Part shown: positions 10,960-44,335 of the stretch, piece by piece
Layout of the letters: each line of letters begins with the position of its first letter
Position numbering within the stretch: position 1 is the stretch's first letter
Assembly (NCBI GenBank): GCA_016932575.1
Contig: JAFGCO010000006.1
Location: 16,238 to 80,237 of the forward strand
DNA from: a bacterium
Lineage (GTDB): Bacteria; Zhuqueibacterota; QNDG01; JAFGCO01
Length of the DNA: 64,000 bases
Direction: 5' to 3'
Program-made: the position numbers and the translations under genes
Notes under the pieces: model-generated
What the model was told of the DNA's origin: nothing
The model's database searches: none
The model's input: only the letters and a program-made list of their open reading frames with translations

Positions 10960-11802
10960 ATGAATTTCAGCGTTATATTGGCAATGATCATTATGGGAGG
11001 ATTGGGATTAATTTTTGGTGCCTGGCTGGCTGTGGCCTCGCGTGTTTTCATGGTTAAGCGTGACCAGCGGATTGCTTTGATTGAAGAAGCCTTGCCAGGA
11101 GCCAACTGCGGTGCCTGTGGTGCGCCCGGATGCAGCGGTTTCGCAGAAGGCGTTGTGAAGGGCGTATATCCGGTGAATGGTTGTACGGTTGGCGGTGCTG
11201 ATGTGGCTGCCAAAGTGGCCGAAATTATGGGAACCAAGGCTGGAGAAACAGTACTCAAAGTCGCTGTTGTACGGTGCCGCGGGGATCATGAAAATGCCGT
11301 CGATCGTGCTCAATACACAGGGATTCAGGATTGCCGGGCAGCTGTCCAGATCAACAATGGTCCGAAAGGATGCGAATATGGATGCCTTGGCCTGGGTACA
11401 TGTGCAGCAGTTTGCCCGTTTGATGCCATTAAAATGAGCGAAAATGGCCTTCCTGTGGTGGATGAAGCATTGTGCACAGGCTGCGGAGAATGTGTCAAGG
11501 CATGCCCGAGAAATATTATGGCTCTGCTGCCAAGAGATCAGAAGATTTATCTGGCCTGTGTGTCCAGGGATTTTGGTAAAGCAGTGAAAGCCGTATGCAA
11601 GGTCGGCTGTATTGGGTGTACATTGTGCGCCAATCCAAAAACGACAGCCAATGAAATCATTACCATGGAGGGGAAATTACCGGTCATTCACTATGACAGA
11701 GTGAATGATCCGGTGGGAGATCTTCAGAATGCTGTTGAAAAATGCCCGACAAAAAGTTTTGCTGTCAGAGACACCAGCGGCAAGCAAAAGAAAAAACAAT
11801 AA
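10960..11802 (+). CDS. RnfB-like Fe-S cluster protein (membrane-anchored polyferredoxin), orphan: no other rnf genes nearby
   Basis: N-terminal TM helix, then CGACGAPGCSGFAEGVV (the RnfB-type cluster motif), plus further CxxCxxCxxxCP 4Fe-4S ferredoxin motifs. Confidence 0.75.
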   Translation: MNFSVILAMIIMGGLGLIFGAWLAVASRVFMVKRDQRIALIEEALPGANCGACGAPGCSGFAEGVVKGVYPVNGCTVGGADVAAKVAEIMGTKAGETVLKVAVVRCRGDHENAVDRAQYTGIQDCRAAVQINNGPKGCEYGCLGLGTCAAVCPFDAIKMSENGLPVVDEALCTGCGECVKACPRNIMALLPRDQKIYLACVSRDFGKAVKAVCKVGCIGCTLCANPKTTANEIITMEGKLPVIHYDRVNDPVGDLQNAVEKCPTKSFAVRDTSGKQKKKQ

Positions 11803-11816
11803 ACGGAACCAGAACC

Positions 11817-12545
11817 ATGAAAATTTTCAGATCTATAAATATACGATTGTCTGGTTTGAGTGTTATTGTGGCAGCTTTTCTTTTTGCTGAAAATGGGTAT
11901 TATATAGAAGAAAAAGTGACGACGCCTCCTATTTTCGGATTACCAGCGCAAACCCATTTCACGAAAACCTGGATTACGGACACACATCTGCGGCGCGATG
12001 AGGGTGATAAAAATCAAACCCTGTTAATCGACACCCGGAAAAATCAAGCCTGGCTGGTTCGACATCAGGACAGCACAATGATCAAGATGGATATAGCCAC
12101 ATTTCAGGGAATGGCTTTGATGACCATGATGATGTTCGGAGTTACATATGACACTTTAACAGGTGAACCGATCATTCCGGATTCGATTTTTTATAAAACC
12201 GGCAGACAGCGGCATGTCGGAGAATGGGATTGTCATGAAGTGGTCATTCACAGCCGTCGTCCGGATTCGGGCGATAAGAGGAATCACCGCGTGATAATGT
12301 GGGTGACAACCTCCCCGGATCGTCCGTTGTATGCATCGATTTTAAGAACCATGATGGGGCCCATGGTCAGACAATATGCTTTCTTTTTTGATCAGCTGGA
12401 ACGGCTGGGCGGATATCCCGCCGAGCTTCATACGCGGGCCATGGGTGTGGAAGTTACGCAGAAATTGTTATTATTGGAAGAGCGGGACATTGCTGACTCA
12501 TTTTTTCAATTACCGCCAGGATACCAGTCCGAAGAGACCCCATAA
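11817..12545 (+). CDS. hypothetical secreted protein
   Basis: ATG at 11817 gives a signal peptide (MKIFRSINIRLSGLSVIVAAFLFA). The upstream part of the ORF overlaps rnfB. No recognisable catalytic motif. Confidence 0.5.
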   Translation: MKIFRSINIRLSGLSVIVAAFLFAENGYYIEEKVTTPPIFGLPAQTHFTKTWITDTHLRRDEGDKNQTLLIDTRKNQAWLVRHQDSTMIKMDIATFQGMALMTMMMFGVTYDTLTGEPIIPDSIFYKTGRQRHVGEWDCHEVVIHSRRPDSGDKRNHRVIMWVTTSPDRPLYASILRTMMGPMVRQYAFFFDQLERLGGYPAELHTRAMGVEVTQKLLLLEERDIADSFFQLPPGYQSEETP

Positions 12546-17675: not shown

Positions 17676-18941
17676 TCATTCACCGATATTTGATCTCCAA
17701 TGACATAGAGCTTTAAATGCCAGTATATCATTATTAAAATGTAAATGAGATGCAAGCTCTGGTGGTGTTGTAGCTATATCAGGCGGTTCAAGTGGTACAG
17801 GATCTATAAAGTCAATTCCTTTTTCTTTTAGGGCATGGGCCCATTCCATTTTCACCCACTTTGAATCCTTGGCTGCTCTTGACCAAAACAAATAAAATAT
17901 ATCGCTTTTATCAATTAATTGAAATAATTTGGATTTATATTTATCTCCTGACCGTAAAGCTATTATATCCATGAATATTTCTAAATCTGGTATAATTTTC
18001 CTCATTCCCGTAAGAATTGAAAATACTTCTTCACGATCCTCACTTGCATATGAAGGAAATACAGATCGATATCTCATTTCCTTATGACTTAAAGGTTTAC
18101 TTTCTAAAGATAATTCACCAACATGTATAACAAAATATAGCTTGGAAATCGGTATGCCATTTAAATAAATACTAATTCGACCTTTATAATTACCAAAGGA
18201 CATACTCTTTGGAGCTTTCACAATAAACGTTGCATTTCCAATATCTCCGTCCCAAAATATAGCATCTTCTGGATCGTCAATAATAAAGGGTGCTAAATCA
18301 ATTCTAACATTTAATAAAGAACCTTTTACAATGGATACTGGCCCTTTAAAATCAACTTGAATAGGTTTTTCATTGAAAATTATTTTTGATCGTTTAAGGA
18401 CTTCGTCCCTCTGTCTTTCTAGGTGTGCAAACAACTCAATTCGAAAAGTTGAACCAGGTTCTACGGTAGATAATGATGTTAATGTGAAATGCACTTTGTT
18501 GAATTTTTTATGTGGCATTTCTATTTTTTGATTTAAATCAGGCTCTACTATATCAAACACATATCTTTTAAGTTTATTTCTAGCACTACGAATAGCCCTA
18601 TCAAATGCTTCTTCACTAATTTGCATTTCCTTTATAATTTCTTTCGTACTTGCTTCCTGCATTATAATTGTCATTATTTTTCGTTCGGTATCATTTAAAT
18701 ATTTAAATGCTGCTTTAATCTTTTCAGTAAGATCTTCAGATTCAGAAAGAGAATCTTGTGAGAAATTATACACATTCCCTATAAATGGATCTACAGGATC
18801 TTGTACAGAGGAATTTTTCCTTCTGGCTTCAGTATTTTCTGGTTTTACTTCTGTTTCCCGACTCTTTTCAATCACATCAGATATTCTTCGCTTATATAGA
18901 TTTTCATACGTTTCATCTTCAATGTGCTTTTCCCGGCGCAT
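17676..18941 (-). CDS. three-part protein: sigma70 region-4-like HTH, beta-sandwich domain, C-terminal TIR domain. Putative defense/NAD+-signalling effector or regulator, in a low-GC islet. The maximal ORF extends to a TTG at 19139
   Basis: C-terminus RSVFPSYASEDRE...IFYLFWSRAAKDSKWVKMEWAHAL matches TIR box1 (VFxSY) and the WxxxE catalytic-Glu region. The region LNDTERKIMTIIMQEASTKEIIKEMQISEEAFDRAIRSARNKLKR resembles sigma70 region 4 / LuxR HTH. The N-terminus is K/E/R-rich. The gene is much more AT-rich than its flanks. The first ATG with upstream -10-like sequence is at 18941; the 66 codons upstream look like promoter DNA. Confidence 0.7.
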   Translation of the reverse strand: MRREKHIEDETYENLYKRRISDVIEKSRETEVKPENTEARRKNSSVQDPVDPFIGNVYNFSQDSLSESEDLTEKIKAAFKYLNDTERKIMTIIMQEASTKEIIKEMQISEEAFDRAIRSARNKLKRYVFDIVEPDLNQKIEMPHKKFNKVHFTLTSLSTVEPGSTFRIELFAHLERQRDEVLKRSKIIFNEKPIQVDFKGPVSIVKGSLLNVRIDLAPFIIDDPEDAIFWDGDIGNATFIVKAPKSMSFGNYKGRISIYLNGIPISKLYFVIHVGELSLESKPLSHKEMRYRSVFPSYASEDREEVFSILTGMRKIIPDLEIFMDIIALRSGDKYKSKLFQLIDKSDIFYLFWSRAAKDSKWVKMEWAHALKEKGIDFIDPVPLEPPDIATTPPELASHLHFNNDILAFKALCHWRSNIGE

Positions 18942-19339
18942 CTGCCTGATTTTCTGCCTTCTTCGATCTAGATATTTATAATTTAAAATACTATGAGCCC
19001 ATTGAATGAACAATCCTTTATATTCCACTTCCAAACATCGAATTGATAAGATAATATATAGAATCCATAAAAAAATATTTCCCTCGTTCCCACGGTCTGA
19101 GACTGTGTGAAAATGGATAAAACCCCCTCCTCGATCCAAAGGAACGGATCGAGGTCCCCCTTATCAGGGGGACAAATTTTCTCTTCGATATGAAAAACGG
19201 AGAAACAGCGTATTGTAATATTGGAAAAAAACACAGTCAAAACACCCGGGGTTTGGCTATTTTCACACAAACTCTCTCCGTGGGAACGCATTCAATGACG
19301 CTTTCGCGTCATAATATTATTGTTATGGGGCTTGTTCCC

Positions 19340-30689: not shown

Positions 30690-31274
30690 TTAAAAATTGC
30701 CGAATTTAATCGTCATTACCAATGTCGGACCACCCAGATCATTATTCGACAACTCAGTTCCGGTGTCCATAGAGGTGACAAATCTGTAGCTTCCGCCAAG
30801 ACCAGCCCGGAAAAATTCGGTAATATTCAGCATGATGTGCACAGAAGGCTCGGCAATAAAAAATGTGTCATATTCATAATCGTCATTCCAATCGGTCGTA
30901 TGACGTTCTGAAAAACCGGCCCCGCCACCTCCCAGCAATGCCATGATACTGAAATGGACAAGCTTGTTCGGTTGTTTGATATATTCAATTTCAATGCCGC
31001 CATACCCCATATTCATTTTCATATCCGGATGTTCTTTTGATGCGATATCGGTCACCAGGCCGTATGCTCCACCTCCCAAAACAAATTGATGGTTGATGAT
31101 CCATCCGCCACGGCCACCCATCATGAACGCGGCTTCCTGATATACGCTTCCGATCTTGCAGACCGGTCCTCCGAATCCTCCGCTTTTAAAATCGCCGCTG
31201 ATCAGGGTTTCCTGTCGGGCTGTTAATACACCCGAAAAAACGAGTAAAAATAACATACACGCTTTATATCTCAT
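30690..31274 (-). CDS. small outer-membrane beta-barrel protein (hypothetical)
   Basis: Signal peptide, Gly-rich amphipathic beta-strands, C-terminal aromatic residue (…IKFGNF). Confidence 0.5.
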   Translation of the reverse strand: MRYKACMLFLLVFSGVLTARQETLISGDFKSGGFGGPVCKIGSVYQEAAFMMGGRGGWIINHQFVLGGGAYGLVTDIASKEHPDMKMNMGYGGIEIEYIKQPNKLVHFSIMALLGGGGAGFSERHTTDWNDDYEYDTFFIAEPSVHIMLNITEFFRAGLGGSYRFVTSMDTGTELSNNDLGGPTLVMTIKFGNF

Positions 31275-31309
31275 TGTTCCCCCGAAATTGTATCATTTAT
31301 TTTCTGTGC

Positions 31310-31849
31310 TTAAAATGTTCCCCACTCCTGTTTGCCGGGAATCCAGGCGGAGGGATAGAGAAATTTGAATGCCCTTGCAGCTTTATCTATTTTTTCTGAT
31401 TTTTGCTGCAGAGCTTTTTTTCGTTTGTCCAGTTGTGCACCGAATTTTTTTTCAATGAATGCTTCTGCTGCTTTTTCACGGTCCTCTTCCGAAGCGAATT
31501 GCTCCCGGATCTGCTTCAACTCACCGGCATCCAGCCAGAATCCACCGCATTTTGGGCATTCGTCCACAGCCACTGCCATTTGTGTGCTGAAAAAATGCCG
31601 CATCATAATGACGTTTTTGCATTTGGGGCAAGATCGCTTTTTAGTATAATTCACCGCAATTTCCGGGCTTTTCTCAATTTTCAGCAAGGCTTCGCCTATG
31701 TGCTCGCTGGGTTCGTCGACTTTTTGAAGCTCAAACCAGTCGAACCAAATGCCTCCGCAGCCGTTTCGACATACATCAACGGTGAGTTTCTCAACAGTGA
31801 AAGGCTGCAGCTCATGATCACATGCAGGGCATTTCATGGTATCCTCCAT
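31310..31849 (-). CDS. double zinc-ribbon protein (zf-TFIIB-like / PF13453-type) with a Lys/Glu-rich tail
   Basis: Two copies of CPxC...(V)DxCxxCxGxWxDxGEL (CPACDHEL...VDVCRNGCGGIWFDWFEL and CPKCKNV...VDECPKCGGFWLDAGEL). Confidence 0.6.
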   Translation of the reverse strand: MEDTMKCPACDHELQPFTVEKLTVDVCRNGCGGIWFDWFELQKVDEPSEHIGEALLKIEKSPEIAVNYTKKRSCPKCKNVIMMRHFFSTQMAVAVDECPKCGGFWLDAGELKQIREQFASEEDREKAAEAFIEKKFGAQLDKRKKALQQKSEKIDKAARAFKFLYPSAWIPGKQEWGTF

Positions 31850-31855
31850 AAGATA

Positions 31856-32350
31856 TTAATTCATGGATGAGATGATAAATTCCATATCATTCCAGTTAAA
31901 CTGTCTGGCAAGTTTCAGAGCCTCTTCAGCAGAGACATTTTTAAAGCTCAGGGATAGAAACGCGCCTTCATTTTCCTCCCGTTGAATCACGACGATAATG
32001 AGGATTTCTTTTCTTGATTTCCGATGGGTTCGAAATACCTGAAATCCGTCGATGGTTTCCGTTGTAATGGACGATCCGGCAGATTCGAAATGGAGATTAC
32101 TGTCGAGCCAGCCGGTTTCAGAAGCCTGGTTGGTGATAAAAATAACGGAGTTCAAAAATTTGTCTTCTTGCGTATATCTTCGGGAAGCATTGATCATTTT
32201 AATGTGATTGTGATACGAGTTGAATCCCTCGGCAGGCCCAGCCTGCCAGCCCGGCAGATCGGGCAGCAGCGGTTTTAATGAGTCGAGTGGATCGGCAAAG
32301 ACATATGCAATCAATACCAGACCCATGCATAAAAACCATTTTTTGTTCAT
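31856..32350 (-). CDS. hypothetical secreted protein
   Basis: The internal Met at 32350 starts a signal peptide (MNKKWFLCMGLVLIAYVFA). No known motif. Lies in the same tight operon. Confidence 0.4.
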   Translation of the reverse strand: MNKKWFLCMGLVLIAYVFADPLDSLKPLLPDLPGWQAGPAEGFNSYHNHIKMINASRRYTQEDKFLNSVIFITNQASETGWLDSNLHFESAGSSITTETIDGFQVFRTHRKSRKEILIIVVIQREENEGAFLSLSFKNVSAEEALKLARQFNWNDMEFIISSMN

Positions 32351-32516
32351 TTCAATGGATCCCTGTTCGTTAATTTTTTTCTCATGGTTCATTTCTCCGA
32401 ATATATTTTTATCGACAGGGCGAATGGACACACACTCTCTTTATCATTGTTATTTTCAGTGATAACGCAAGTATTGGACGAAACGTCCTTTTTAATAATC
32501 ATACTGCTTTCAGAAT

Positions 32517-33626
32517 TTAAAATTGATAGATCCACCCGGCTCCGATCTCAAGACCGGAAAGCGACACATCTGTGCTATACGAACCGGTCCAGTATTTCAG
32601 TCTTCCGATAAGTTGAGATTTATTTGAGAGTTTCATTTCCGGTGTCAGCACGATACCTATCAGGTTTGAACCTTCATATATACCGGTTTCCTCATAAAAC
32701 CTGCCTTCGATTCCATAGGACATGGAAAAAGCATTGCTGTGACGATGCTTATACTGGCCGGAGAACTCTATATGATTCGGATATGATTTTTCCCTTTCTG
32801 CCACGAGCTTATATGTACCGGTCGAATCGGAACCGATGATCCGGTTTTTTGCTTTGCTTCGATACCGTAGTAACAGCGTCAGTATATCATATTCGAAGTA
32901 GGTTTTAAATTGTATATTTGTCACCATTTTATTCCCGGATTTGAATACCTCCAGGGTATCTGCATATGTATCTGATCCATAAGATGTGAAGATGAAATCA
33001 CCTGAGAGTGTGCTGAGTGTGCCGACACGGATATCGAGACCGGCAGTGAGTAACAGTTCGTTACCCGGTTTGTATACAGCTTCCGTTTTTTTCAGCGGGA
33101 CGAATCCTCCCCGAATCTGATAGGCCAATCCCAATCCCAGGACGGCTCCATCATTGACAGGAAGCGCCCAGGTTACGCCTGGCGAAAGATTAAATCCCTG
33201 ACCGAAACTGGGAACAATAAAGTTCCAGTAATGCTGACTGATGAACATTGAAGTCTGAAACTCCGCACTGTCCAGAGCCGTCTTCCCTGTGGGCATTCCC
33301 AGACCCAGGTTGAACACAAGATTTTGATCCTCCAGATAATAATTCCATGAAATCTGCGTGTCACTCAATCCGGCAATCTCGCCCATATCCTTGCCGTTTG
33401 CATTGGCATAACTTGTATATATCGAAAGAGAGGTTTCCCGGGAAATCGGCCAGTAAACCTCGACCGGTACGCTGAATTCACTGAGAGAACTGTCATTATC
33501 AATGGTGTAACTCTGATGAATCCCCTGTATGCGAAAAAATCCTTGTTGGCCAATCACATAATTTTCTTCAGCCGGGAGTGATCCGGCAATCATCAGTAAA
33601 AAAATCCATATCAATTTTCTGGTCAT
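32517..33626 (-). CDS. outer-membrane beta-barrel protein (hypothetical; possible cargo-specific T9SS-associated outer-membrane protein)
   Basis: Signal peptide, alternating hydrophobic beta-strand pattern, C-terminus ...GAGWIYQF. Sits directly downstream of the giant T9SS cargo gene. Confidence 0.5.
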   Translation of the reverse strand: MTRKLIWIFLLMIAGSLPAEENYVIGQQGFFRIQGIHQSYTIDNDSSLSEFSVPVEVYWPISRETSLSIYTSYANANGKDMGEIAGLSDTQISWNYYLEDQNLVFNLGLGMPTGKTALDSAEFQTSMFISQHYWNFIVPSFGQGFNLSPGVTWALPVNDGAVLGLGLAYQIRGGFVPLKKTEAVYKPGNELLLTAGLDIRVGTLSTLSGDFIFTSYGSDTYADTLEVFKSGNKMVTNIQFKTYFEYDILTLLLRYRSKAKNRIIGSDSTGTYKLVAEREKSYPNHIEFSGQYKHRHSNAFSMSYGIEGRFYEETGIYEGSNLIGIVLTPEMKLSNKSQLIGRLKYWTGSYSTDVSLSGLEIGAGWIYQF

Positions 33627-33653
33627 GCACGCCTCCGAATCACTGCAGCGAAT

Positions 33654-36600
33654 CTACTGCAGGCGAATCATTTTTTTGGTTGCTGTGAAATGAGGTGTAG
33701 ACAGACGATAAAAATACAAACCACTGGCGCATTGGCGGCCCCAGGCATCCGTACCATCCCAGAATTTTGTGTGATTACCAGCGGGCAGGGTTTGATAAAT
33801 CCATGTTTGCACGCATTCCCCGAGAACATTGTAGATCTCCAAGCGTACACGGGTCCGCTCTGCCAGTTGAAAATCAATGGTGGTCGTCGGATTGAAAGGA
33901 TTTGGATAATTCTGTCTCAATCTGAAATGCTGGGGAGAGAGCGGAATATCTTCTCGCTGGATCTCTGCATATTCCAAAGTTCCCAGAATCAGTTTCAGCC
34001 GTCGGGGAGGATGAATTTTTGCTTGGTGATTCTGAAGAGGAATCGAGGCGCCGTGGTCCAGATCAAGCAGCCAGATATGAAAATGATCCGGTATGTCTGT
34101 TTGCTGATTTAAAACAATTTCAGCCAGCCCTGTTCCGGATGCGGATTTGATTTCTAATTCCCAGCATGCGCCTTTGGTGGAAATTTGTTTATAATTGGCT
34201 GAAAACCTAAGCCGTTGTTCCAGAATATTCAATTGCAGTGTGTTTCTGATAGCCGGTGGTTTCAAATAGTCGCACGCGTCTTTAATGTCACTGGCATCCC
34301 GCAGCATGCCCACATAGTTGTTCTGGTCCGTAAATCCAGAACTCATATCTCTGGCACTCAGTTGTATTACAATTTCACCCGGTTTACATTCTTTGCCTCG
34401 TCCGGATTTGGGCAATGGACTCGCAGACACCGGCGGCACCAGAAGTTCTGCAGAGCCATTGGCATACACAAAATAGCCTTCCCACGGATTGAGAACGGTC
34501 TGGTCATAAAAATATTCTTCATCATAACTCGCTACAGGCGGATCCACGCTGGCACCCCTTACAGAAACGCTGCTCCATGCCACCGGAAATGTAAAGGGAT
34601 TTCCAATCTGATTCCATCCCTTTTGCAGTAAAATCTGATAAGGGGTTCTGGAGTCCACTGAAAGTACGTTATCGATGTCAAAGTCTATTCCCTCGTGGGT
34701 GATTACCCAGAACGCTTTGCCCGGTTCAGAATTCCACAATGCTTCGCCCGGCCGATATTCCCGGTAATAAGCCGTATCAGCTGCACTGTCGTTCCACCAA
34801 TAAAAAACACGCCACAGTTTGGTGTTGTAGCTCCCGAGTTCATCGGTAAAGACACGTCCGATATTGCGTTCAGTTAAATGGTAGGGAATGGTCAGCATAC
34901 CATACGTTTCCGGGAGAGAGATTTTTTCTGAAGCAACTGAAGGAGAGACAACGATTAACCAGTTGGCTGTGGCGTCATCGCTTCCGGATAGAATTGTTTT
35001 TTCCTGAGTGACAGAATTGATTCTGGCGATATAATAAGCCAGCCCGTCCGGTGGAATTTCGGCAGCTTCCAATTCCACAGTATAATCAAGCAGACCCCGT
35101 TCAAATTCCAGTGAATCCCAGTCTGCCTGGCCGGAGGAGCGGTAATAGAGAAATATCCGGTCGAAAATCTGGGCTCCGCTGGCGAGTGTTATTGAGAAGG
35201 ATGAATCCGAGGAAAGCTTGCTGGGCAGAATATCGGGATTTATTTGGAACAGTGTGCCTCGGCCTGTCAGCTGGACAGTATTCAGACCCTGGGCTGTATT
35301 GGATTCGATGATCAGGTAGGCTGTATCCGGCAGCAGTTCCGCGGGTGCAAATGCCACAGATAAAAAGCTGGTATCGCCAGGTGCGGCCAAAGCGGGCTCA
35401 GGTCCGAATACAACAGAGAATTGAGATCCGGGAGGATCGATCGCTGCATTGTAAATCTGCAGTTCCTGATTTCCGATATTGATCATTGAAAGGGTGTCGA
35501 TTTTTGTTGTGTTTCTTACCACACGCCCGAACATCCAGGGATCCGGATGCACGGCCATGAGCGGCGATCCCCCCGACCCGGTCATTGATAAAGTGTCCGG
35601 TGAGGAGGGGGCGTTGCTTATCACAATCAGATCGGCTTCTTTGATACCACCGGACTGGGGGGTAAAATTGACTATGATGATATGCGTACTGTCCGGATGC
35701 GGACTGACAGTTGCCGGATCGCCCCCCTGAACCAGTTCAAAATCTTCTGATCCTAAAATATAACTTTCATAAATTGACAGTTCAGCAGCGCCCGGATTGG
35801 TAATGATCACAGATTTACGGATGTCTTCATCCGGAGACAGAATGCCGAAATCGAGGGATGACGGATTAAAATTTAACATGGCCTGGTCAGATGATCCCTG
35901 CAAACGAACCGTGTCCGGAGAAGTGGGCGAATTGGAATAAATAACCAGAAATGCCTGAAAAGTGCCCCCGAGAACGGGTTTGAATTTGACAGAAATCGAT
36001 CCCTGGCTGCCCGGATCAAAAGGAGAGGGAGCAGAGTGAGTTTCTTCATACAACACGCCGTCCTGAGTGTTGATCAGCTGCGTGTCCGTGATGTCCAGTT
36101 CGGCACTGCCGATATTTTGTATTTGCAGGGTCTGTGTTGCCGAGTCGCCGGCCATGACATTGCCGAAATCGATCCTATAGGCGGATAAAGCCAGTTGGGG
36201 GCTTCCGACCTCCTCGACCGTGTATAAGGCCAGTCCCCGTTCCGTTCCCACCCATAAGTTTCCGTTGATGTCAAATGCCAGATCATTGATGCCGTTATCG
36301 ATCAGTCCGGAGTTTTTGACCGTATACCATGATGTGTCTCCGGGGGCATATTTCACCAAGCCCTGGCTCGTGCCGATCCAAAGATTGCCGGATTTACTGA
36401 CGGTTAAGGCACGAATGATATTGCTCGGCAAATCCGGGTCTACGGTTTCCCATTCCCAGGTTTCGTTTTTTAATACCCATAATCCCTGGTCCGTCCCGAC
36501 CCATAAGTTGTTCTCATTGTCAACGGTCATGTCCAATACGTACGTGGCTGTAATACCATCGGGTGCCAGGGTGACTTCTTCAGTGATCGTGTTGAATTGA

Positions 36601-38063
36601 CGAATGACAAAATTCTGGGCAAACAGCCACAAGTTGTCTTCGTGGTCCGCCGCAATCACCGTATTATCATTGGTCTGAAGCTCCACAACTTCCTGTGTTG
36701 TATAAGGAATCCAGTCCGCGCCGTCATATTTTCCCAGCCCCTTCTCAGTACTGACCCAGACAGTGTAAGACGCATCCATGACACTTGTCAATATGTAATT
36801 GCCGGGGATACCGTAGCCGGGGGAGATATGATTCTCCCAGACAGAGTTGCTGAACAAATAGACACCGGCGCCTTCCGTGCCGACGAACAGCGTTCCACCG
36901 TGATCAACCAGGATGCTCCTGATTGGTGCCGCAGGCGCATTGCCGCCTTCATAGGTATTCCAGCCAGCCCCGTCATACAATGTGACAACATTTCCCGTGC
37001 TGATCCAGAGGCCTTCGTTCTGGTTTCTTGAAGCCAGATTCTGCACCGACGGACTTGGCAGCTCGGAGTTGGAAGTAACATAACTTGTCGACCAGACCGA
37101 GCCGGACAGCTTTGCAAGACCTTGTGTGGTACCGATCCATTTGTCGTTCAGCTCATCGATATGAATGGCATGAACCGCATTGGCGGGAATTCCGGTACCT
37201 GGAAAGCTGTAAGCAATCCAGCTAGTCCCGGGATAATAAGCCAGGCCGCCGTTTTCGGTACCGACCCAGGGAACGTTCACATTGTCAAATGCGATAGCGC
37301 GGATATTGTTGTCCGGAAAACCGGGTGCAGCACCTGACTGATAAAAATCCCAGTCGCTTTGGGCGATTTGCTCGGCAAGCCCCGAGCCTGGTGTGCCGAC
37401 CCATGGCACACCCTCCGAATCGAATGCGACAGCGGATAATTCATCGGAAGGAAGTCCTCCGGGCGACTGATACCACGTTTGCCATAGATCATCAGTGGTT
37501 CGCCGGGCAAGACCATCGGCCGTAGCGATCCAGAGCCAGTTATTGCTATCGTCAAAGGCCAGGTCACGAATCAAATTGCTGGGCAGATTGTCCTCTGTGG
37601 TCGTATTGATAACCGAAAAGTCATCCGTATCGCTGTGGTAGATGCCCAGCCCGTTCGACAGAGTGCCAACTATGGGCAGTCCGTCTGTATCCAGGGTCAA
37701 TGTATTGACAACCTGGGAGGGCAGTCCGTCATTTGTGTCGTAAAGTGTCCAGTCATTCCCTGCAAGCTTTGCCAATCCCTGCCGGGTGCCGATCCACTTT
37801 TCATTATTGGATCCGATGACGATATCCAGAATTTCAACATTTGGCAAATCAGAATTCGCACTGTTTAAATGTTCCAGAGTCTGATCGGTGACTTTATTGA
37901 TTTTTACAAGACCGCAGGTGGTTCCTACCCAAAGCGTATCAAATTCCTGAGCGATGGCTGTGATTTGATCGCCATTGGTGAAATTAAACCATTCCGGTTC
38001 CTGACCCCGGATCAAACTGGTTAAAATAATGAGAACAATGATAATGCGAACCAAGTTTTTCAT
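33654..38063 (-). CDS. giant secreted cell-surface protein: tandem two-component-regulator-type beta-propeller repeats, several Ig-like domains, and a T9SS C-terminal sorting domain
   Basis: Signal peptide. More than 14 repeats of the form W(I/V)GT..GL. About four Ig-like modules (…DFGNV…, …LDFGIL…). The C-terminus NYPNPFNPTTTIDF...GLYFYRLST...KKMIRLQ is a classic Por_Secre_tail. Confidence 0.85.
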   Translation of the reverse strand: MKNLVRIIIVLIILTSLIRGQEPEWFNFTNGDQITAIAQEFDTLWVGTTCGLVKINKVTDQTLEHLNSANSDLPNVEILDIVIGSNNEKWIGTRQGLAKLAGNDWTLYDTNDGLPSQVVNTLTLDTDGLPIVGTLSNGLGIYHSDTDDFSVINTTTEDNLPSNLIRDLAFDDSNNWLWIATADGLARRTTDDLWQTWYQSPGGLPSDELSAVAFDSEGVPWVGTPGSGLAEQIAQSDWDFYQSGAAPGFPDNNIRAIAFDNVNVPWVGTENGGLAYYPGTSWIAYSFPGTGIPANAVHAIHIDELNDKWIGTTQGLAKLSGSVWSTSYVTSNSELPSPSVQNLASRNQNEGLWISTGNVVTLYDGAGWNTYEGGNAPAAPIRSILVDHGGTLFVGTEGAGVYLFSNSVWENHISPGYGIPGNYILTSVMDASYTVWVSTEKGLGKYDGADWIPYTTQEVVELQTNDNTVIAADHEDNLWLFAQNFVIRQFNTITEEVTLAPDGITATYVLDMTVDNENNLWVGTDQGLWVLKNETWEWETVDPDLPSNIIRALTVSKSGNLWIGTSQGLVKYAPGDTSWYTVKNSGLIDNGINDLAFDINGNLWVGTERGLALYTVEEVGSPQLALSAYRIDFGNVMAGDSATQTLQIQNIGSAELDITDTQLINTQDGVLYEETHSAPSPFDPGSQGSISVKFKPVLGGTFQAFLVIYSNSPTSPDTVRLQGSSDQAMLNFNPSSLDFGILSPDEDIRKSVIITNPGAAELSIYESYILGSEDFELVQGGDPATVSPHPDSTHIIIVNFTPQSGGIKEADLIVISNAPSSPDTLSMTGSGGSPLMAVHPDPWMFGRVVRNTTKIDTLSMINIGNQELQIYNAAIDPPGSQFSVVFGPEPALAAPGDTSFLSVAFAPAELLPDTAYLIIESNTAQGLNTVQLTGRGTLFQINPDILPSKLSSDSSFSITLASGAQIFDRIFLYYRSSGQADWDSLEFERGLLDYTVELEAAEIPPDGLAYYIARINSVTQEKTILSGSDDATANWLIVVSPSVASEKISLPETYGMLTIPYHLTERNIGRVFTDELGSYNTKLWRVFYWWNDSAADTAYYREYRPGEALWNSEPGKAFWVITHEGIDFDIDNVLSVDSRTPYQILLQKGWNQIGNPFTFPVAWSSVSVRGASVDPPVASYDEEYFYDQTVLNPWEGYFVYANGSAELLVPPVSASPLPKSGRGKECKPGEIVIQLSARDMSSGFTDQNNYVGMLRDASDIKDACDYLKPPAIRNTLQLNILEQRLRFSANYKQISTKGACWELEIKSASGTGLAEIVLNQQTDIPDHFHIWLLDLDHGASIPLQNHQAKIHPPRRLKLILGTLEYAEIQREDIPLSPQHFRLRQNYPNPFNPTTTIDFQLAERTRVRLEIYNVLGECVQTWIYQTLPAGNHTKFWDGTDAWGRQCASGLYFYRLSTPHFTATKKMIRLQ

Positions 38064-38119
38064 AACGAATTGCCTCTCAATCGTCTAATGCCTGTTTTCA
38101 ATAGTGAAGGAATCCGGCT

Positions 38120-39553
38120 CTAAGGTCCCGGCGGATCCGGGGGGCGAGGCAGATCAGGCAATGTAATGGTATTAAAAAGTGATTCCACATCAAAATCATA
38201 TAAATCCAGAGGATTGGAAATCCGTTCATCCAGGACGTTCGACAGGAGTTGCGCGGTTGTGAATTCCTGACTGGATTTTCTTGAATCCTGACCGGGGATA
38301 AATGTGGAGCCAATATTCCTGCTGACGTTATGCAGGCGGTTGCGGATCAATGCTTCTCTGTTGATGAGTGTCGGTGCGAGTGGTGTCCGTGGAGATACGG
38401 AGACATGTTTAACAGATCGGAAAGGAGTCTGTCTGCTTATCTGAGCCATGGATTGATTGACCATCAGTTTATTTTGTGCTTCCTCATAACCGGGATCTAT
38501 GCCTGTGGCTTGTTTAAAATATTCAGCGGCTTTGGTAAAGTTCCCCTGATCTTCCATTTCCAGTCCCATACTGTAAGCGATAAACGCCTGAATGTTTTTT
38601 GTCGGAATATGCTGTATTTGTTGCCTTTCCCTGGCAGACAGCTCGATGCCCATCTGGCCGATCACTTGAAAAACTAGGTCCTTCTCCAGTTTAAAGAGAT
38701 GCTGCAAACGATCTTTCATTGTAATCGGATTGGGAACAGTGCTGCTGAAAATATCTGTATATGTGACGTCCAGGTGGATGTTCCTGTCGTCAAGCACGGC
38801 AAAATTGCCCTGGACCACCTTGCCTGCTCCGAGCAACTTGCCCATTTTTGGTGTGGAAGTGACATCCATCAGGCCGGTTTGTGACAGCTGCATTTCATCA
38901 TACAATGCCTGAACGCGAACCCGCTCAACCATATCCAGTTTCTTCACCTGACTTAGGTCGGTCATAATCATTTCAGCCACGCCTTTGCCCATCGGAGCAT
39001 AGTTTTCATCTAATCCCATGTGTTTCAGCGGTAATACAGCGATTGTTTTAGGGGATGTTGTTTTGATCTGCAGCAACGCTTCACTTTGCAGCATCTTATG
39101 AATTTCTTTTCGTGAGTTTGTTCTGGAGAGAAGGTTGTGCTGAGCTTCCATCTTGTATTTATATTCGGCCGGAATTTCTACTGACTTATATCGGCCATAG
39201 ATCATCAGAGCCCTGTCGGTTTGTCCGCGTAATTCCAGAAGCTGTGCCAGGTAATAGAGTGTTTGTGCGTCTTTTCGGTTAAGACGCCAGGCTTTAATCA
39301 GACTTTTCACAGCGAACTTGTACCATTTCATTTCGAAAAGAGCGGTACCAAGATCCCGAAATGCTTCAGCGCTGCGTGGATTTTGTCTTATTTTGTATAT
39401 GAGGTGTTTGATTTTTTGACGTTGTTCCGTGGGTGAGGGTCCAGGGGGTGTGGTTGCACAGGCCAGCCATAACATCAGAACCGGCATCAGCCATCTCCCA
39501 AGGCGTATTATTGATCGCATGAATATCTCCTGAAAAGTCCTGTTAATATTCAA
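38120..39553 (-). CDS. lipoprotein with TPR repeats and a CsgG/TolB-N-like domain
   Basis: Lipobox-like MLWLAC. TPR-like helices. IAVLPLKHMGLDENYAPMGKGVAEMIMTDL motif typical of CsgG/FlgO/TolB_N folds. Pro-rich C-terminus. Confidence 0.6.
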   Translation of the reverse strand: MNINRTFQEIFMRSIIRLGRWLMPVLMLWLACATTPPGPSPTEQRQKIKHLIYKIRQNPRSAEAFRDLGTALFEMKWYKFAVKSLIKAWRLNRKDAQTLYYLAQLLELRGQTDRALMIYGRYKSVEIPAEYKYKMEAQHNLLSRTNSRKEIHKMLQSEALLQIKTTSPKTIAVLPLKHMGLDENYAPMGKGVAEMIMTDLSQVKKLDMVERVRVQALYDEMQLSQTGLMDVTSTPKMGKLLGAGKVVQGNFAVLDDRNIHLDVTYTDIFSSTVPNPITMKDRLQHLFKLEKDLVFQVIGQMGIELSARERQQIQHIPTKNIQAFIAYSMGLEMEDQGNFTKAAEYFKQATGIDPGYEEAQNKLMVNQSMAQISRQTPFRSVKHVSVSPRTPLAPTLINREALIRNRLHNVSRNIGSTFIPGQDSRKSSQEFTTAQLLSNVLDERISNPLDLYDFDVESLFNTITLPDLPRPPDPPGP

Positions 39554-39706: not shown

Positions 39707-41546
39707 TTATTTTAATAACAGACATTTTCGAAGCTGCCGGTTCTTGCCGGCAGTCAGTCGTATTAAATACATATTACTTGCAAGTTTTGTTCCATTCCAG
39801 TATAATGTATGTGCCCCTGCGTTTGCTGCTCCATCAAACAAGGTTTCAATTTTTTCTCCCCGTGTATTGAATACTTCCAGTCTTATATGACAGGATTCGG
39901 GTAAATGCCAGCTTATTTCAGTGCTTTCATTGAACGGATTCGGAGCCACGGGATGCAAGCAGAACAAATCCGGTTTATTGTGTTGAACCTGGCTTGAGGA
40001 TTGAAAGGTCCATGTCATCAGTGTCCAGGAGTGGCTGCTGAAATCATGGGTGTATGGAAAATTCTCATTTCCCTGAAAAACGGTTTTCAGCGCGACTTCC
40101 GTGTTTTTCGCTGTATTGATTGACCAGAGACGGGGGGCGTTTAATTCTCGCAGTGTGAGTTGGTTGTAATCGGATCCGTTAGTCAGATGAATAATGGCTG
40201 TTATGGAGTCATATTCATGATCTGATTCCTGAAGTCCGGAAATACGGTTTAAAACATACAATCGCAGAGTATCTTTGGCCGGACTGACAGTTGCCAGTGA
40301 TTTTAAAAGGGGAACAAATAATGTGTCCGACTTCCATCCCTCTCTGCCTTCCGGATCAATATCAGCCACTGGCAAATGATAAACGGGCCCGTTTTTAATG
40401 TTTGAAGCGATAACAGAATGATGAAGGCTTCGGGACAACTCGCTGTATATCAGGGCAGAAGGATTGAGATAAAATGCAGGTGAAGGGCCGATCATCCCTG
40501 TCACCGGCCAGTCTGCAAGAGCCGTATCAGAATCTGTGAGCAGTGAATGGATGTTCATTCCCAGGAGCCCTGTATTGAAGGCCCGGCTCAGCATACCCAT
40601 AAGGCAACCCGCAATATACAATCCCTGATCCAGAGAACGACCGAAAAAAATCCAGCTGTCTTCCAGCATACCATGGATTGGATGTATCTCCTGTTCGGTC
40701 ATACAACCGATACACCAGGTTGAACTCGCTGATCCATATCCCCAATGTTTTCTGCCCATGAGCCAGAACGTCCAGATGTTCGCGATGGTTCTGCAGTCTG
40801 GTTTCATGATTGTCTGTCTGCTGCCATTCGGTGCCCCACGAGACGTCCGCACAAAGCGCCAGAAAAAATGAGTCCGGATCCACGGGCGGATATTTCACAT
40901 AAAACGACTGATCGGGCTGACCGTTGCTTATTTCGGCATTTACAGACCAGTTGTTTTTCTTCACAACCCGTTGGCCTTGTTGCGGATTTTTCATATCATA
41001 GTACTGCCATTGAGAGCCGCCAAGAAGATAATTGCGGACGGTCCGGGCATAGTTTTCAGAACCATCGGGATTCTGTCCGAAATGCCAGGAGAACATGTGC
41101 TTATAATGCGCTCCCAGTTCATTTTTTGAATAGCCTGAAGAGCCGTCGAATCCGCCCGGCCTTTCCTCAATGGAACCCAGGCCGTCTTTCCAGAAATAGC
41201 TGCCGCTTGCGTTTCCACCAGGGAATCTCAGGTTTCTGACGCCGGTCTCACGAACCGCGCTTATGAACAGTTCCGGGAACAAACCGGTCAGCGGATCGTA
41301 ATCCGCACGATCAACAATAGATGTCATGGGATTGTTGGCACCCAGTAAAAAGGGGGTGACGGTTCCCAGGGTATCCGCAGAGAGATCGATGTGAATTTCG
41401 ATTTGAGATTCTCCGAATAATTGAAAGGATAAGAAGATCGAGAAAAGTGCGGTGGTTTTCATGAAGGCATTTTTCCCATGTTCAAATTTTTTATTGCACT
41501 TAAGATGTCGCTTCCAGTTTTTCAGAGACAATCCAGAAACAATCAA
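39707..41546 (-). pseudogene. frameshifted gene for a secreted clan GH-A glycoside hydrolase (GH30/39/51/79-like) with a T9SS C-terminal domain
   Basis: The N-terminal ORF (41546..40527) has a signal peptide and LRFPGGNASGSYFWKDGLG. The C-terminal ORF (40852..39707) ends in a Por_Secre_tail. The two frames swap at a 7-A homopolymer (40644-40650). Deleting one base fuses them in silico (…WYAGRQLDFFGRSLDQGLYIAGCLMG…). Confidence 0.65.
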
Positions 41547-41764: not shown

Positions 41765-42310
41765 ATGCTTGTCTTTTTAGCAATCATCGTTTTATTGTTG
41801 CTTATGATTATTATGGTTTACAATCGTCTGGTGAAACTTCGGAATCATAATAAAAATGGGTTTCACCAGATTAATGTGCAGTTACAGCGCCGGACAGATT
41901 TAATTCCCAATCTTGTTGAAACTGTGAAAGGCTATTTGAAGCACGAAAAAAAGACGCTGGAAGCTGTCATCCGGGCTCGTTCAGCTTTGCAAAAAGCGGA
42001 TTCCCCCGGTGAAAAAGCGCAGGCCAACGATATGCTATCTTCCACATTGAAAAGCCTTTTTGCCGTGGTTGAGAATTATCCCCAATTAAAGGCCAATGAA
42101 AATTTTCTGCGTCTGCAAGAAGAAATTACGACCACAGAGAATCAAGTGGCTTTTGCCCGCCAGTATTATAATGATTCGGTGATGAAATATAATACGGCCA
42201 TTGAATCCTTTCCCCAATCGCTTATTGCCGCGATGTGCAATTTTCGGGCGTTTCATTATTTTAAAACAGAGAGTGCAGCCGCAAGAAAAGCGCCGAAGGT
42301 GAAGTTCTAA
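41765..42310 (+). CDS. lemA: LemA family protein
   Basis: N-terminal TM, then the conserved YNRLVKLRN...QLQRRTDLIPNLVETVKGY motif. Confidence 0.85.
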   Translation: MLVFLAIIVLLLLMIIMVYNRLVKLRNHNKNGFHQINVQLQRRTDLIPNLVETVKGYLKHEKKTLEAVIRARSALQKADSPGEKAQANDMLSSTLKSLFAVVENYPQLKANENFLRLQEEITTTENQVAFARQYYNDSVMKYNTAIESFPQSLIAAMCNFRAFHYFKTESAAARKAPKVKF

Positions 42311-42547
42311 GTATAAGGTTCAAAAACAAATATCAAAAAGTAAAAATTCCACTCCAATTTGAAAACCAACCCAAATTTTTTGTCATTCCCATATTTTTCA
42401 AATAGAGGATGTTCTTACTCGTCTTTTGGTGACCCTGTCTTTCGAAGATCCGATGCTTTTCCATATAAAAATTTTTTTGGTCAGAAATCCATGCGTGGAT
42501 GATGAAGAATGTATTTTTAATATAAGTATTTGGGGGTGAACCTCTTC

Positions 42548-44335
42548 CTAAATGATATGATCCATTTTATTTGCTTCTTCCACCAGAATCTGCAATAACT
42601 CCAGTTCATTTTGATCAAACCAGACCACCCGGCAGAATTGGCAGGTATCGAGTTCGATGTGATATACGACATTGTACAGAGATCGGATCATGGGCATACT
42701 GCAGCATGGGCAGAGATACTGTTCCAATTTATTACCCAGGGATTTGGTATTGCCTTTAGATCTGTACCACTGGATGGCTTTTTTTCGTGCTGTCTCAGAA
42801 AATTGCACATCCTGACGGATAAGAATGGTTTGAATGCTCTCCAGAAGCACTATTTTACCGGAGCATTCCGGGCAGTACTGAACGGATACGTTTTCATAAC
42901 TGCCTCTGACCAAATTTTTTCTGCAAATTGGACAAAGAACATCAGGACTCAAAAAATCCTTTACGCTTTTTTTTCGTTGATGCATGTTTTTGATTTTTTG
43001 CACATATTTGGCGGGCACACCTGTTTTCAATAAATTTTTGGGAATGGTGTCCGATTGAGAAGTACTGGCTTCATCCACCGTAATAAATGTGGTCAAAGTA
43101 AACCAGGGCATGCGTACCAGAGTCTCGGTTGAAAGGCCGGAGATCCAACCGCCGGAAGGTGTGCGTATTTTCCAAAGTTGTTCATTTGGAGTGTTCATCC
43201 ATTCAGAAGATGGAATTTCAGGAGGTACTAGACGAATGGGGGTATCGGATTCCGGCTCAGCATGTTTGAACCGGTGTGTTGGATAATGCGCCATAGCAAG
43301 CAGAGCGGCAAGCCTTTTTTTAGGGGGAGGATGGCTGCTGAGAAGGTTGGTCCAGAACCCTCCTTTTTCATTTGATCCCTCTGAATCGGGTGAGACGATA
43401 AAAAGCGGGGTGAATCCAACTGCATAGAGTCCCAAGTTGGATGGATTACAGTGAGCTTTGTCAATAGCCCGGGCCAGAGCCATTGGATTGCGAGTCATTT
43501 CCACAGCGGTAGCATCTGCAATAAACTCTCTGTTTTGACTTATAAAACAGCTGAGCAAACGCATCATACCAGAAGAGATTCCCAGTATGAAGCTATAAAA
43601 AACCTGGAGGCCCGTGCGGTATTCTTTGTCATTGATGAGCGTTTTTTTGCTTATAGAATGCATCGTATTGATTAATGAAGTGATAAATCCAATATAGAAG
43701 GTGTCTCCATTGCGAATGTGAGCCAGTTCATGGGCAACAATGGCTTGAAGCTCGTCCCGCTTAAATTTGGAGACGATGCCTTCGGTTAAAGCGACTATTG
43801 GTGTTCCCTCTTTGTCGATGAGGGCCATTGAGTTAAAAACACCGGAAGGAATGATTCTCGCGTATACACTGGGCAGGCCGCAGGCGATACGGATTTCATC
43901 AACAATATTTTTAAACTGCTGATGACAGCTGTCCAGTTTTCCGGGTGGATGCAGGTTGAGTATTTTGAGTAACCGTTGTCTTCCGTATAATTTGGCGTAG
44001 GTCCAATGTAACCCCAGGAATGTCAAAGACAATCCCAGGATGATAAATATGTCGGTCCATGAAAAATAGGAGATAAAAAAAGAGGAACCAAAATCAGTGA
44101 ATATGACACGATCCTCGAAATATGTCATGAGGGGGATCCACAGAATTCTGATTGGTATATAAAGGACAGTAATGGTGAACACATAGATTAAAAACAGTGG
44201 AAAGATAAGAATAGCTGTCTTCCTGTTTTCCCGGGTCCGTATTTCATAGAAATTTTGCGGTGATGATTTCAAGTTGAAACTCAAATTAGACTGCTTTTGG
44301 ATTTTTCTGATACAGATGAAAAACATGCCAGTCAT
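42548..44335 (-). CDS. M48 (HtpX-like) zinc metallopeptidase with a C-terminal double zinc-ribbon (zf-TFIIB-like) extension
   Basis: N-terminal TM helices. HELAHIRNGD (HExxH). The C-terminal ~150 aa carry two CPxC...CxxC ribbons. An alternative TTG start at 44284 sits 1 nt after the upstream gene's stop. Confidence 0.8.
   Translation of the reverse strand: MTGMFFICIRKIQKQSNLSFNLKSSPQNFYEIRTRENRKTAILIFPLFLIYVFTITVLYIPIRILWIPLMTYFEDRVIFTDFGSSFFISYFSWTDIFIILGLSLTFLGLHWTYAKLYGRQRLLKILNLHPPGKLDSCHQQFKNIVDEIRIACGLPSVYARIIPSGVFNSMALIDKEGTPIVALTEGIVSKFKRDELQAIVAHELAHIRNGDTFYIGFITSLINTMHSISKKTLINDKEYRTGLQVFYSFILGISSGMMRLLSCFISQNREFIADATAVEMTRNPMALARAIDKAHCNPSNLGLYAVGFTPLFIVSPDSEGSNEKGGFWTNLLSSHPPPKKRLAALLAMAHYPTHRFKHAEPESDTPIRLVPPEIPSSEWMNTPNEQLWKIRTPSGGWISGLSTETLVRMPWFTLTTFITVDEASTSQSDTIPKNLLKTGVPAKYVQKIKNMHQRKKSVKDFLSPDVLCPICRKNLVRGSYENVSVQYCPECSGKIVLLESIQTILIRQDVQFSETARKKAIQWYRSKGNTKSLGNKLEQYLCPCCSMPMIRSLYNVVYHIELDTCQFCRVVWFDQNELELLQILVEEANKMDHII

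Follow-up and report, generated by a model that had tools for sequence, protein, structure and literature searches.

The minus strand of the window analyzed here (the whole 64,000-nucleotide, or 64-kb, stretch of contig JAFGCO010000006.1) carries six open reading frames (ORFs) that fill positions 30690 to 39553, and this locus raises the question of which of these genes belong together and what their products do at the cell surface. Numbered 1 to 6 in the order of transcription, the ORFs encode 477, 1469, 369, 191, 179, and 194 amino acids (aa), and, counted from the longest-ORF starts, they are separated by 56, 27, 85, 6, and 35 nucleotides (nt). A preliminary description of this DNA had reported the common strand and the gaps of 6 to 85 nt correctly and had read the six genes as one module. 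Because all six ORFs have homologs, none of them is a chance ORF. The comparison of related loci showed that the conserved unit, as defined by gene content, consists of genes 1 to 3 only, which encode a putative lipoprotein, a protein predicted to be exported by a type IX secretion system (T9SS), and a predicted beta-barrel, and that this unit extends across at least six lineages of the Fibrobacteres-Chlorobi-Bacteroidetes (FCB) superphylum. We propose that the three proteins form an outer-membrane docking platform that would hold the T9SS-exported protein at the cell surface. We infer this complex by analogy and put the probability of the reading at roughly 0.42.

The features of genes 1 to 3 are as follows (CTD, C-terminal sorting domain; TPR, tetratricopeptide repeat; Ig, immunoglobulin; AF2, AlphaFold2).

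38120..39553, minus strand: gene 1, putative outer-membrane lipoprotein (477-aa ORF; Pfam TPR and partial CsgG matches; AF2 model).
38651..39055, minus strand: alpha/beta domain at residues 167-301 of gene 1, TolB-N-like (CsgG/LpoB clan; AF2, Pfam, Foldseek).
33654..38063, minus strand: gene 2, secreted protein of 1469 aa ending in a T9SS type-A CTD (Pfam, NCBIfam).
36219..37991, minus strand: fourteen Reg_prop blades of gene 2, residues ~25-615 (Reg_prop, 95.9 bits; blade motif count).
35244..36206, minus strand: three choice-of-anchor-D/HYDIN-type Ig-like domains of gene 2, residues ~620-940 (NF012200, PF22544).
33909..35246, minus strand: pre-CTD domain of gene 2, residues 940-1385, with a core at ~1053-1385 (alignment across loci).
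33657..33908, minus strand: T9SS type-A CTD of gene 2, residues 1386-1469 (TIGR04183, Por_Secre_tail).
32517..33626, minus strand: gene 3, 369-aa predicted outer-membrane beta-barrel (AF2 model; signal peptide; C-terminal ...WIYQF).

Related loci were collected with the barrel and the lipoprotein as probes, the genome scan with the barrel being made with a 9-sequence alignment, and the fetched loci were searched by phmmer and by alignment hidden Markov models (HMMs). In about 23 of 26 distinct loci, the genes for the lipoprotein, the T9SS protein, and the barrel followed one another in this order on a single strand, and 4-nt overlaps between adjacent module genes were present in L011, L016, L021, L023, and L034. 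The loci came from metagenome-assembled genomes labeled KSB1, Calditrichaeota, Ignavibacteriae, Rhodothermales, Cytophagia, Chitinophagales, and Bacteroidota. One of the loci (L031) belongs to the complete genome of Roseithermus sacchariphilus MEBiC09517, in which the T9SS protein gene lies on the opposite strand, 1.2 kb away. A lipoprotein homolog was found upstream of the barrel in every locus with sufficient flanking sequence, and a search begun from the pre-CTD domain (two proteins) returned to the same neighbor genes. The protein with the pre-CTD domain was absent from three loci (L005, L007, and L033). Judged from this gene content, the lipoprotein-barrel pair is the invariant core of the module. 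The preliminary description had set co-occurrence in related genomes as a test. Synteny was seen for genes 1 to 3, whereas genes 4 to 6 were shared with close kin only, and the notion of six genes as one conserved set had to be abandoned. That description also overlooked the pre-CTD domain as a conserved element and a Ser/Thr kinase that many relatives encode.

Two loci depart from the usual layout by additional genes. In L031, a gene for a DUF6588 protein (388 aa; 11077-12243, minus strand) stands between the barrel gene and the opposite-strand pre-CTD gene. In L035, the whole five-gene set stands in a permuted order with an identical component set, and two small inserted genes (2754-3432), of which one is TumE-like, separate the pre-CTD gene from the barrel gene.

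The product of gene 2 has a signal peptide (N terminus, MKNLVRIIIVLIILTSLIRGQ) and ends with a CTD that matched the type-A model TIGR04183 with 36 bits against a cutoff of 23 (residues 1386-1466) and Pfam Por_Secre_tail with 26.9 bits. The type-B model CHU_C scored 21.6 bits, under its cutoff of 27. Having a CTD above the curated cutoff together with a signal peptide, the protein is a predicted T9SS type-A CTD substrate. Twelve strict and two degenerate Reg_prop motifs, spaced by ~44 residues, add up to 14 blades by motif count, which would be enough for two 7-bladed propellers. In the Ig-like region, NF012200 matched with 100.7 bits over three stretches and PF22544 also over three stretches. 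The signal peptide, propellers, Ig-like domains, and CTD of this giant protein had all been recognized in the preliminary description, but its counts of more than 14 repeats and about four Ig-like modules are corrected to 14 and three, respectively.

The N-terminal part of the gene 2 homologs differs by lineage, while the pre-CTD domain and the CTD, which together form the C-terminal 415 to 530 aa common to these proteins, are constant. In a domain-level comparison, the pre-CTD domain (~440 aa) was the sole region of gene 2 matched in all loci. Reg_prop propellers are found in the clade of the window and in several KSB1-like loci, the pre-CTD protein of Roseithermus carries a PQQ/BamB-like propeller at its N terminus, and that of L009 carries LamG/FG-GAP/Ig modules. 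Relatives of 556 to 680 aa have almost nothing N-terminal of the pre-CTD domain, which constitutes most or all of the mature protein before the CTD. A homology search with the domain retrieved at least 20 proteins, and its conserved motifs are YxMxSxP, WRxxxW, PGxAFWLITR, PGWNQIGNPFAFPV, PWEGYFV, EAPPIG, and GTExFA. The alignment of the domain (A5) gave no match in Pfam, NCBIfam, or the PDB. Pro, Gly, Trp, and Tyr predominate among its invariant positions, which also include a single Arg, a single Glu, and a single Asp; this composition would point to a domain with a structural or binding role and not to an enzyme.

Gene 3, which adjoins the gene of the exported protein (hereafter also called the cargo), encodes a beta-barrel, as had been noted before. 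Its AF2 model, built with 34 homologs, has a predicted local distance difference test score (pLDDT) of 83.8 and a predicted template modeling score (pTM) of 0.77, and DSSP assigned 16 long strands to it. The odd-to-even connections are long and the even-to-odd connections are short, which is the usual outer-membrane topology with a periplasmic N terminus, and the last residue is Phe. Loop L3 (residues 113-145) comprises 33 residues, contains a helix, and bears the motif PxFGQGFN, the best-conserved sequence of the barrel family. Mean identity was 0.57 to 0.70 in loops L3 to L5 and strands 4 to 9, compared with 0.23 to 0.47 in L6 to L8 and strands 12 to 15. Conservation that is highest in extracellular loops L3 to L5 and in S4 to S9 is unusual for outer-membrane proteins.

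The barrel family is large and is, by the searches made, a candidate family without a curated model. A full HMM search returned 1,513 clusters at 50% identity with E <= 1e-3, 551 of which had E <= 1e-30. The PorP/SprF, PorQ, PorV, and FadL models matched neither gene 3 nor any of the 34 family members; for PorP/SprF there was no match at E <= 0.1 for the barrel of the window and none at E <= 1 for the 34 members, among which only a single weak match each to Porin_7 and OMP_b-brl was seen. Foldseek found only generic barrels, namely, OmpG, FadL, AlgE, BcsC (with its TPR), and OmpF, with template modeling (TM) scores of 0.4 to 0.5 and ~10% identity. The FadL match (TM score, 0.45 to 0.51; 8 to 10% identity) was no better than those to OmpG, AlgE, and OmpF, and PorV, PorP, and PorQ chains were absent from the top 50 matches. 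A PDB profile search with the barrel was empty, and an exact-sequence look-up of the barrel of the window gave no match.

Gene 1 probably starts at M12 (position 39520), as in the identical 466-aa NCBI protein P0040, recorded as 'hypothetical protein JW835_01215 [bacterium]'. Its AF2 model (pLDDT, 80.5) shows, in order, a signal peptide with a lipobox Cys, TPR helices (residues 41-124), a long helix (129-159), the alpha/beta domain (167-301), two further TPR pairs (307-375), and a disordered tail. The Pfam CsgG model PF03783 matched only in part, with 23.9 bits (cutoff, 20.8) over residues 187-251, and the match spans only model positions 35-98 of 210. In the AF2 model, the alpha/beta domain has four short strands and is without transmembrane hairpins. 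Foldseek aligned it with the TolB N-domain (root-mean-square deviation of 3.3 to 4.4 Å over ~140 columns, 18 to 21% identity, E of about 1e-4), and no CsgG chain was among its top 50 matches. When the domains of homologs were compared with Pfam, 16 of 16 matched CsgG (over model positions 35-98 only), 8 of 16 TolB_N, 4 of 16 LpoB, and 3 of 16 FlgO. A PDB profile search with the domain gave just three chance-level matches (E >= 0.2). As modeled, the domain belongs to the TolB-N/CsgG/LpoB fold group and is not predicted to be a CsgG-type pore. The combination of TPRs with a CsgG/TolB-N-like fold, as proposed earlier for this protein, was thus retained, but not the CsgG-type secretion role, since the domain is short, four-stranded, and matched by the TolB N-domain. 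The lipobox Cys and the Pro-rich C terminus are conserved among the homologs, and the distant relatives of gene 1 are TolB-like/TPR adenylate cyclases.

The last 100 residues of gene 1 (window positions 38123-38425, minus strand) are predicted to be disordered yet carry motifs conserved in nearly all long paralogs. These are NIGSxFxPGQDSRK and, at the C-terminal end, LPxPPxPP. Short TolB-N/TPR paralogs are without this motif-bearing tail.

Many relatives of the module carry additional genes. Ten loci (L005, L021 to L024, L027, L028, L031, L034, and L035) add a Ser/Thr kinase with PEGA domains, and the same ten always add a second, shorter TolB-N/TPR paralog of ~350 aa. The kinase-PEGA gene is either directly upstream in the same orientation or part of a permuted gene order, and in every kinase one hydrophobic segment separates the kinase domain from the PEGA domains, which implies a cytoplasmic kinase and periplasmic PEGA domains. 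An FHA protein is encoded near the module in L005 and L031. No kinase was found in the 64-kb window, which carries a kinase-less form of the module, and about half of the loci have no kinase within 10 kb.

Other neighbors were observed beside the lipoprotein-barrel pair in three loci. In L007 (7240-14135), which has no pre-CTD protein, the pair stands beside a CHASE2 protein and a fusion of CsgG with Peptidase_C14 (caspase). In L032 (11022-16611) and L033 (11193-16737), its neighbors are a CHASE2 adenylate cyclase, a protein of 832 to 834 aa with a weak transglutaminase-like match, and a small CsgG/LpoB-like protein. The pre-CTD protein is present in L032 and absent in L033.

Genes 4 to 6 complete the cluster in the window.

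31856..32431, minus strand: gene 4, small secreted protein (probable start ATG 32350, 164 aa; signal peptide MNKKWFLCMGLVLIAYVFA).
31310..31849, minus strand: gene 5, 179-aa protein with two Zn_ribbon_TFIIB domains and without a signal peptide (PF13453).
30690..31274, minus strand: gene 6, glycine-rich protein of 194 aa (signal peptide; C terminus ...KFGNF; sequence).

The start of gene 4 follows its L001 homolog, which is called at 164 aa, and with it the gap between the barrel gene and gene 4 grows from 85 to 166 nt. The protein gave no significant match in Pfam or the PDB. The product of gene 5 is the double zinc-ribbon protein that the preliminary description had seen (PF13453, E = 3.9e-24; PDB 8yoz, E = 7e-8). 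That of gene 6 had no match in Pfam, NCBIfam, or the PDB, is probably a small outer-membrane barrel judged by its sequence features, and found only close relatives in a metagenome scan. L001 and L002, whose barrels are 76% identical to that of the window, keep homologs of all three genes, and L011 keeps them without gene 5, its barrel gene being followed by a gap of ~750 nt. No examined locus beyond this closest clade holds any of them; by this distribution, genes 4 to 6 are apparently lineage-specific additions.

How the three conserved proteins would act can be outlined as follows. With its TPR and TolB-N-like domains, and perhaps also its Pro-rich tail, the lipoprotein would bind the barrel on the periplasmic face, and the two proteins would constitute a fixed platform in the outer membrane. 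The T9SS would carry the gene 2 protein across this membrane, after which the pre-CTD domain or the CTD would dock on the conserved L3-L5 side of the barrel, so that the protein would be retained at the cell surface. The lineage-specific N-terminal modules, which are here two Reg_prop propellers and three Ig-like domains, would then face outward as binding surfaces. Because the platform is co-encoded with the kinase and the second paralog in many lineages, it is probably regulated by, or reports to, a phospho-signaling pathway there. Several points weigh against this docking platform. The type-A CTD cargo of Porphyromonas gingivalis is anchored covalently to anionic lipopolysaccharide (A-LPS) and needs no barrel partner, and the precedent of PorE and PorP concerns type-B CTDs (PMC9143113). 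The L3 motif is kept in L005, L007, and L033, where the pre-CTD protein is lacking, so L3 may serve the lipoprotein or a channel function instead of cargo docking. The promoter and terminator scan of the window was uninformative, as terminator-like sites were no commoner than in shuffled sequences; within that limit, no convincing minus-strand terminator was seen between the cluster genes. Finally, the recurrent kinase, CHASE2, FHA, and caspase neighbors point towards signaling over plain anchoring. The kinase-bearing versions and the conservation of L3 where cargo is absent make trans-envelope signaling a serious alternative, which we nevertheless regard as rather unlikely. The state of a surface receptor would pass through the barrel and one or more TolB-N/TPR lipoproteins to the PEGA domains of an inner-membrane kinase, and the kinase-less form in the window would either have an unlinked signaling partner or have lost this output. 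Such a route would fit the kinase-PEGA gene and second paralog in ten loci, the one transmembrane segment of every kinase, the FHA protein close by in L005 and L031, and the CHASE2 neighbors in L007 (with its CsgG-caspase fusion), L032 (with a pre-CTD protein), and L033. The adenylate cyclases among the remote relatives of the lipoprotein are also in line with it, as is Reg_prop, which by its Pfam name is a sensor fold of hybrid two-component systems, and the conserved disordered tail could thread into or touch the barrel in the manner of RcsF with OmpA/C/F. However, the window and about half of the loci have no kinase at the distances given above, no output regulator is conserved in the neighborhood, and the kinase could equally control assembly of the platform instead of receiving a signal. 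The wider proposal, in which the module would be the outer half of an undescribed signaling system of the FCB superphylum, running from a T9SS-displayed receptor through the barrel and the TolB-N/TPR proteins to a eukaryote-like Ser/Thr kinase, is likewise one that we regard as rather unlikely.

Less probable still is an outer-membrane channel, in which the lipoprotein and the 16-strand barrel would be a gated pore for the export of a polymer or for the uptake of a solute captured by the surface protein. Sixteen strands and a conserved, helix-bearing L3 are reminiscent of general porins and of the plug loops of PelB and BcsC, and a TPR with a lipoprotein on the periplasmic side is the arrangement of PelBC (PMC12141448). 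The Foldseek matches include AlgE and BcsC with its TPR, and L3 is conserved with or without cargo. However, these structural matches are generic, the conserved partner is a T9SS substrate, and the examined loci share no conserved gene for a glycosyltransferase, a synthase, or a transporter; the lack of accompanying synthase and transporter genes makes a channel role less likely. It is improbable that all six genes build a surface adhesin with the two barrels, the secreted protein, and the zinc-ribbon protein as integral parts. The common strand, the short gaps, and the order of all six genes kept in L001 and L002 would agree with such an operon, but the absence of genes 4 to 6 beyond the closest clade, the missing zinc-ribbon gene and long gap in L011, the 166-nt gap in the window with the supported start of gene 4, and the restriction of gene 6 relatives to close kin argue against it. 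A curli-like secretion channel made by the lipoprotein itself is very improbable. The CsgG scores above the cutoff, in gene 1 and in all 16 homologous domains, would speak for a CsgG-type channel, whereas the short span of the match, the four-stranded fold without membrane hairpins, and the structural match to the TolB N-domain with no CsgG chain in the top 50 speak against it, and CsgA/B/E/F-like genes were not seen.

The genes flanking the cluster in the window are of the housekeeping type. Downstream are genes for an aspartokinase-homoserine dehydrogenase, an aspartate-semialdehyde dehydrogenase, an FKBP, and a DEAD-box helicase, and upstream are genes for a LemA protein, an M48 peptidase, a metallophosphatase, and a HAD hydrolase. 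Directly upstream of the cluster (39707-41546, minus strand) lies a degraded copy of a gene for a 786-aa ASD1-domain protein with a T9SS CTD, of which intact homologs are present in L001 and L011. This copy lacks residues 120-199 and 303-418 of the homolog and changes frame near residues 474-487, a site not far from a T-run (~40650). Either the gene has become a pseudogene or the assembly contains an error here. At 41765-44335, the LemA gene (plus strand) adjoins the M48 peptidase gene (minus strand), whose product bears two C-terminal Zn_ribbon_TFIIB domains, the same domain pair as in gene 5, 10 kb away. Elsewhere in the window, a 487-aa protein with a C-terminal TIR_2 domain is encoded at 17676-19139 (minus strand), in the stretch with the lowest GC content (0.37 to 0.39 at 16-20 kb, compared with ~0.44), and this region may be a small defense or mobile insertion.

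How T9SS substrates are retained and arranged at the cell surface is poorly known beyond a few model Bacteroidota, and the known cargo-specific partners, PorP/SprF and PorE, serve type-B CTD proteins. If the docking platform is real, the module would be a second solution made from unrelated parts, with a type-A CTD protein as its partner. Environmental FCB lineages carry it widely, the barrel family alone counting ~1,500 clusters at 50% identity, and it defines two families, that of the barrel and that of the pre-CTD domain, for which there is no curated model. The searchable literature yielded no description of the module or of the link between the T9SS and a Ser/Thr kinase that it suggests. 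If the signaling alternative were true, events at the cell surface would control phosphorylation in the cytoplasm. The cultured carrier with a complete genome, R. sacchariphilus MEBiC09517, opens the system to experiment.

Several known systems resemble the module in part. In the PorZ-PorQ/PorU-PorV attachment complex, PorZ has two propellers and a CTD and is retained at the surface by the barrel PorQ. The gene 2 protein partially matches the PorZ model, with 102.5 bits for NF052228 against a cutoff of 260 and in the propeller region only, and was not accepted as PorZ. Unlike in PorZ-PorQ, the propellers are dispensable across the module family, and the barrel has no PorQ or PorV match. Slam (DUF560) proteins combine a periplasmic TPR and a 14-strand barrel in one polypeptide, encoded beside the gene of the surface lipoprotein that they serve. 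The module likewise encodes a periplasmic TPR and a barrel next to a surface protein, and one short paralog has a borderline TPR_Slam match (35.7 bits; cutoff, 35.2); in contrast to Slam, the TPR and the barrel are separate proteins, the barrel has no DUF560 match, and the substrate is a T9SS CTD protein. With RcsF and OmpA/C/F, an outer-membrane lipoprotein and a barrel feed an inner-membrane signaling protein, and in PpkA-TagQRST, where the lipoprotein acts with sensors of the outer membrane and periplasm, PpkA is a Ser/Thr kinase with an FHA partner. The likeness of the module to these two systems is an analogy from gene content, and there is no sequence relationship.

Among export gates, PelB-PelC, BcsC, PgaA, and AlgK-AlgE have a 16-strand barrel, helix-containing occluding loops, and a periplasmic TPR, and Pel has an accessory lipoprotein (PMC12141448). 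The module differs from PelBC, AlgKE, and BcsC in that the similarity is generic, the TPR is on a separate lipoprotein, and the conserved partner is a T9SS protein. A polysaccharide export operon was rejected, as no glycosyltransferase or synthase genes are conserved in the neighborhoods of the examined loci, and a CsgG pore was rejected on the domain features given above. Compared with the TolB-N/CsgG/LpoB/FlgO group, the domain of the module is distinct in having TPRs on both sides and a conserved Pro-rich tail after it.

The closest likeness in composition is to the cargo-specific partners of the T9SS. The TPR lipoprotein PorE is found in a complex with the barrel PorP and the T9SS cargo PG1035, SprB is anchored by SprF, and porP-like genes adjoin cargo genes and porE-like genes (PMC9143113). 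As in PorE-PorP-PG1035 and in SprF-SprB, the module combines a TPR lipoprotein, a barrel, and a T9SS protein, with the barrel gene beside the cargo gene. The preliminary description had drawn the analogy with PorP/SprF, which stood for this arrangement but not for the type of protein. The barrel was excluded from PorP/SprF (TIGR03519/PF11751) by the lack of a model match in all 34 members, by its 16 strands in place of the 14 of the FadL type (PMC9143113), and by the CTD of its cargo, which is type A instead of type B (TIGR04131/CHU_C) and is preceded by the pre-CTD domain. The lipoprotein has a TolB-N-like domain in place of the beta-propeller, CRD, and OmpA_C of PorE, and an identity as PorE or PorW was rejected, with 12.3 bits for PorW NF052312 against a cutoff of 250. 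Many versions of the module, unlike PorE-PorP, also add a Ser/Thr kinase. As the preliminary description had recognized, the locus is not a standard T9SS core locus; by its predicted domain content, the module is a repetition of the composition of PorE-PorP-cargo and SprF-SprB with non-homologous parts.

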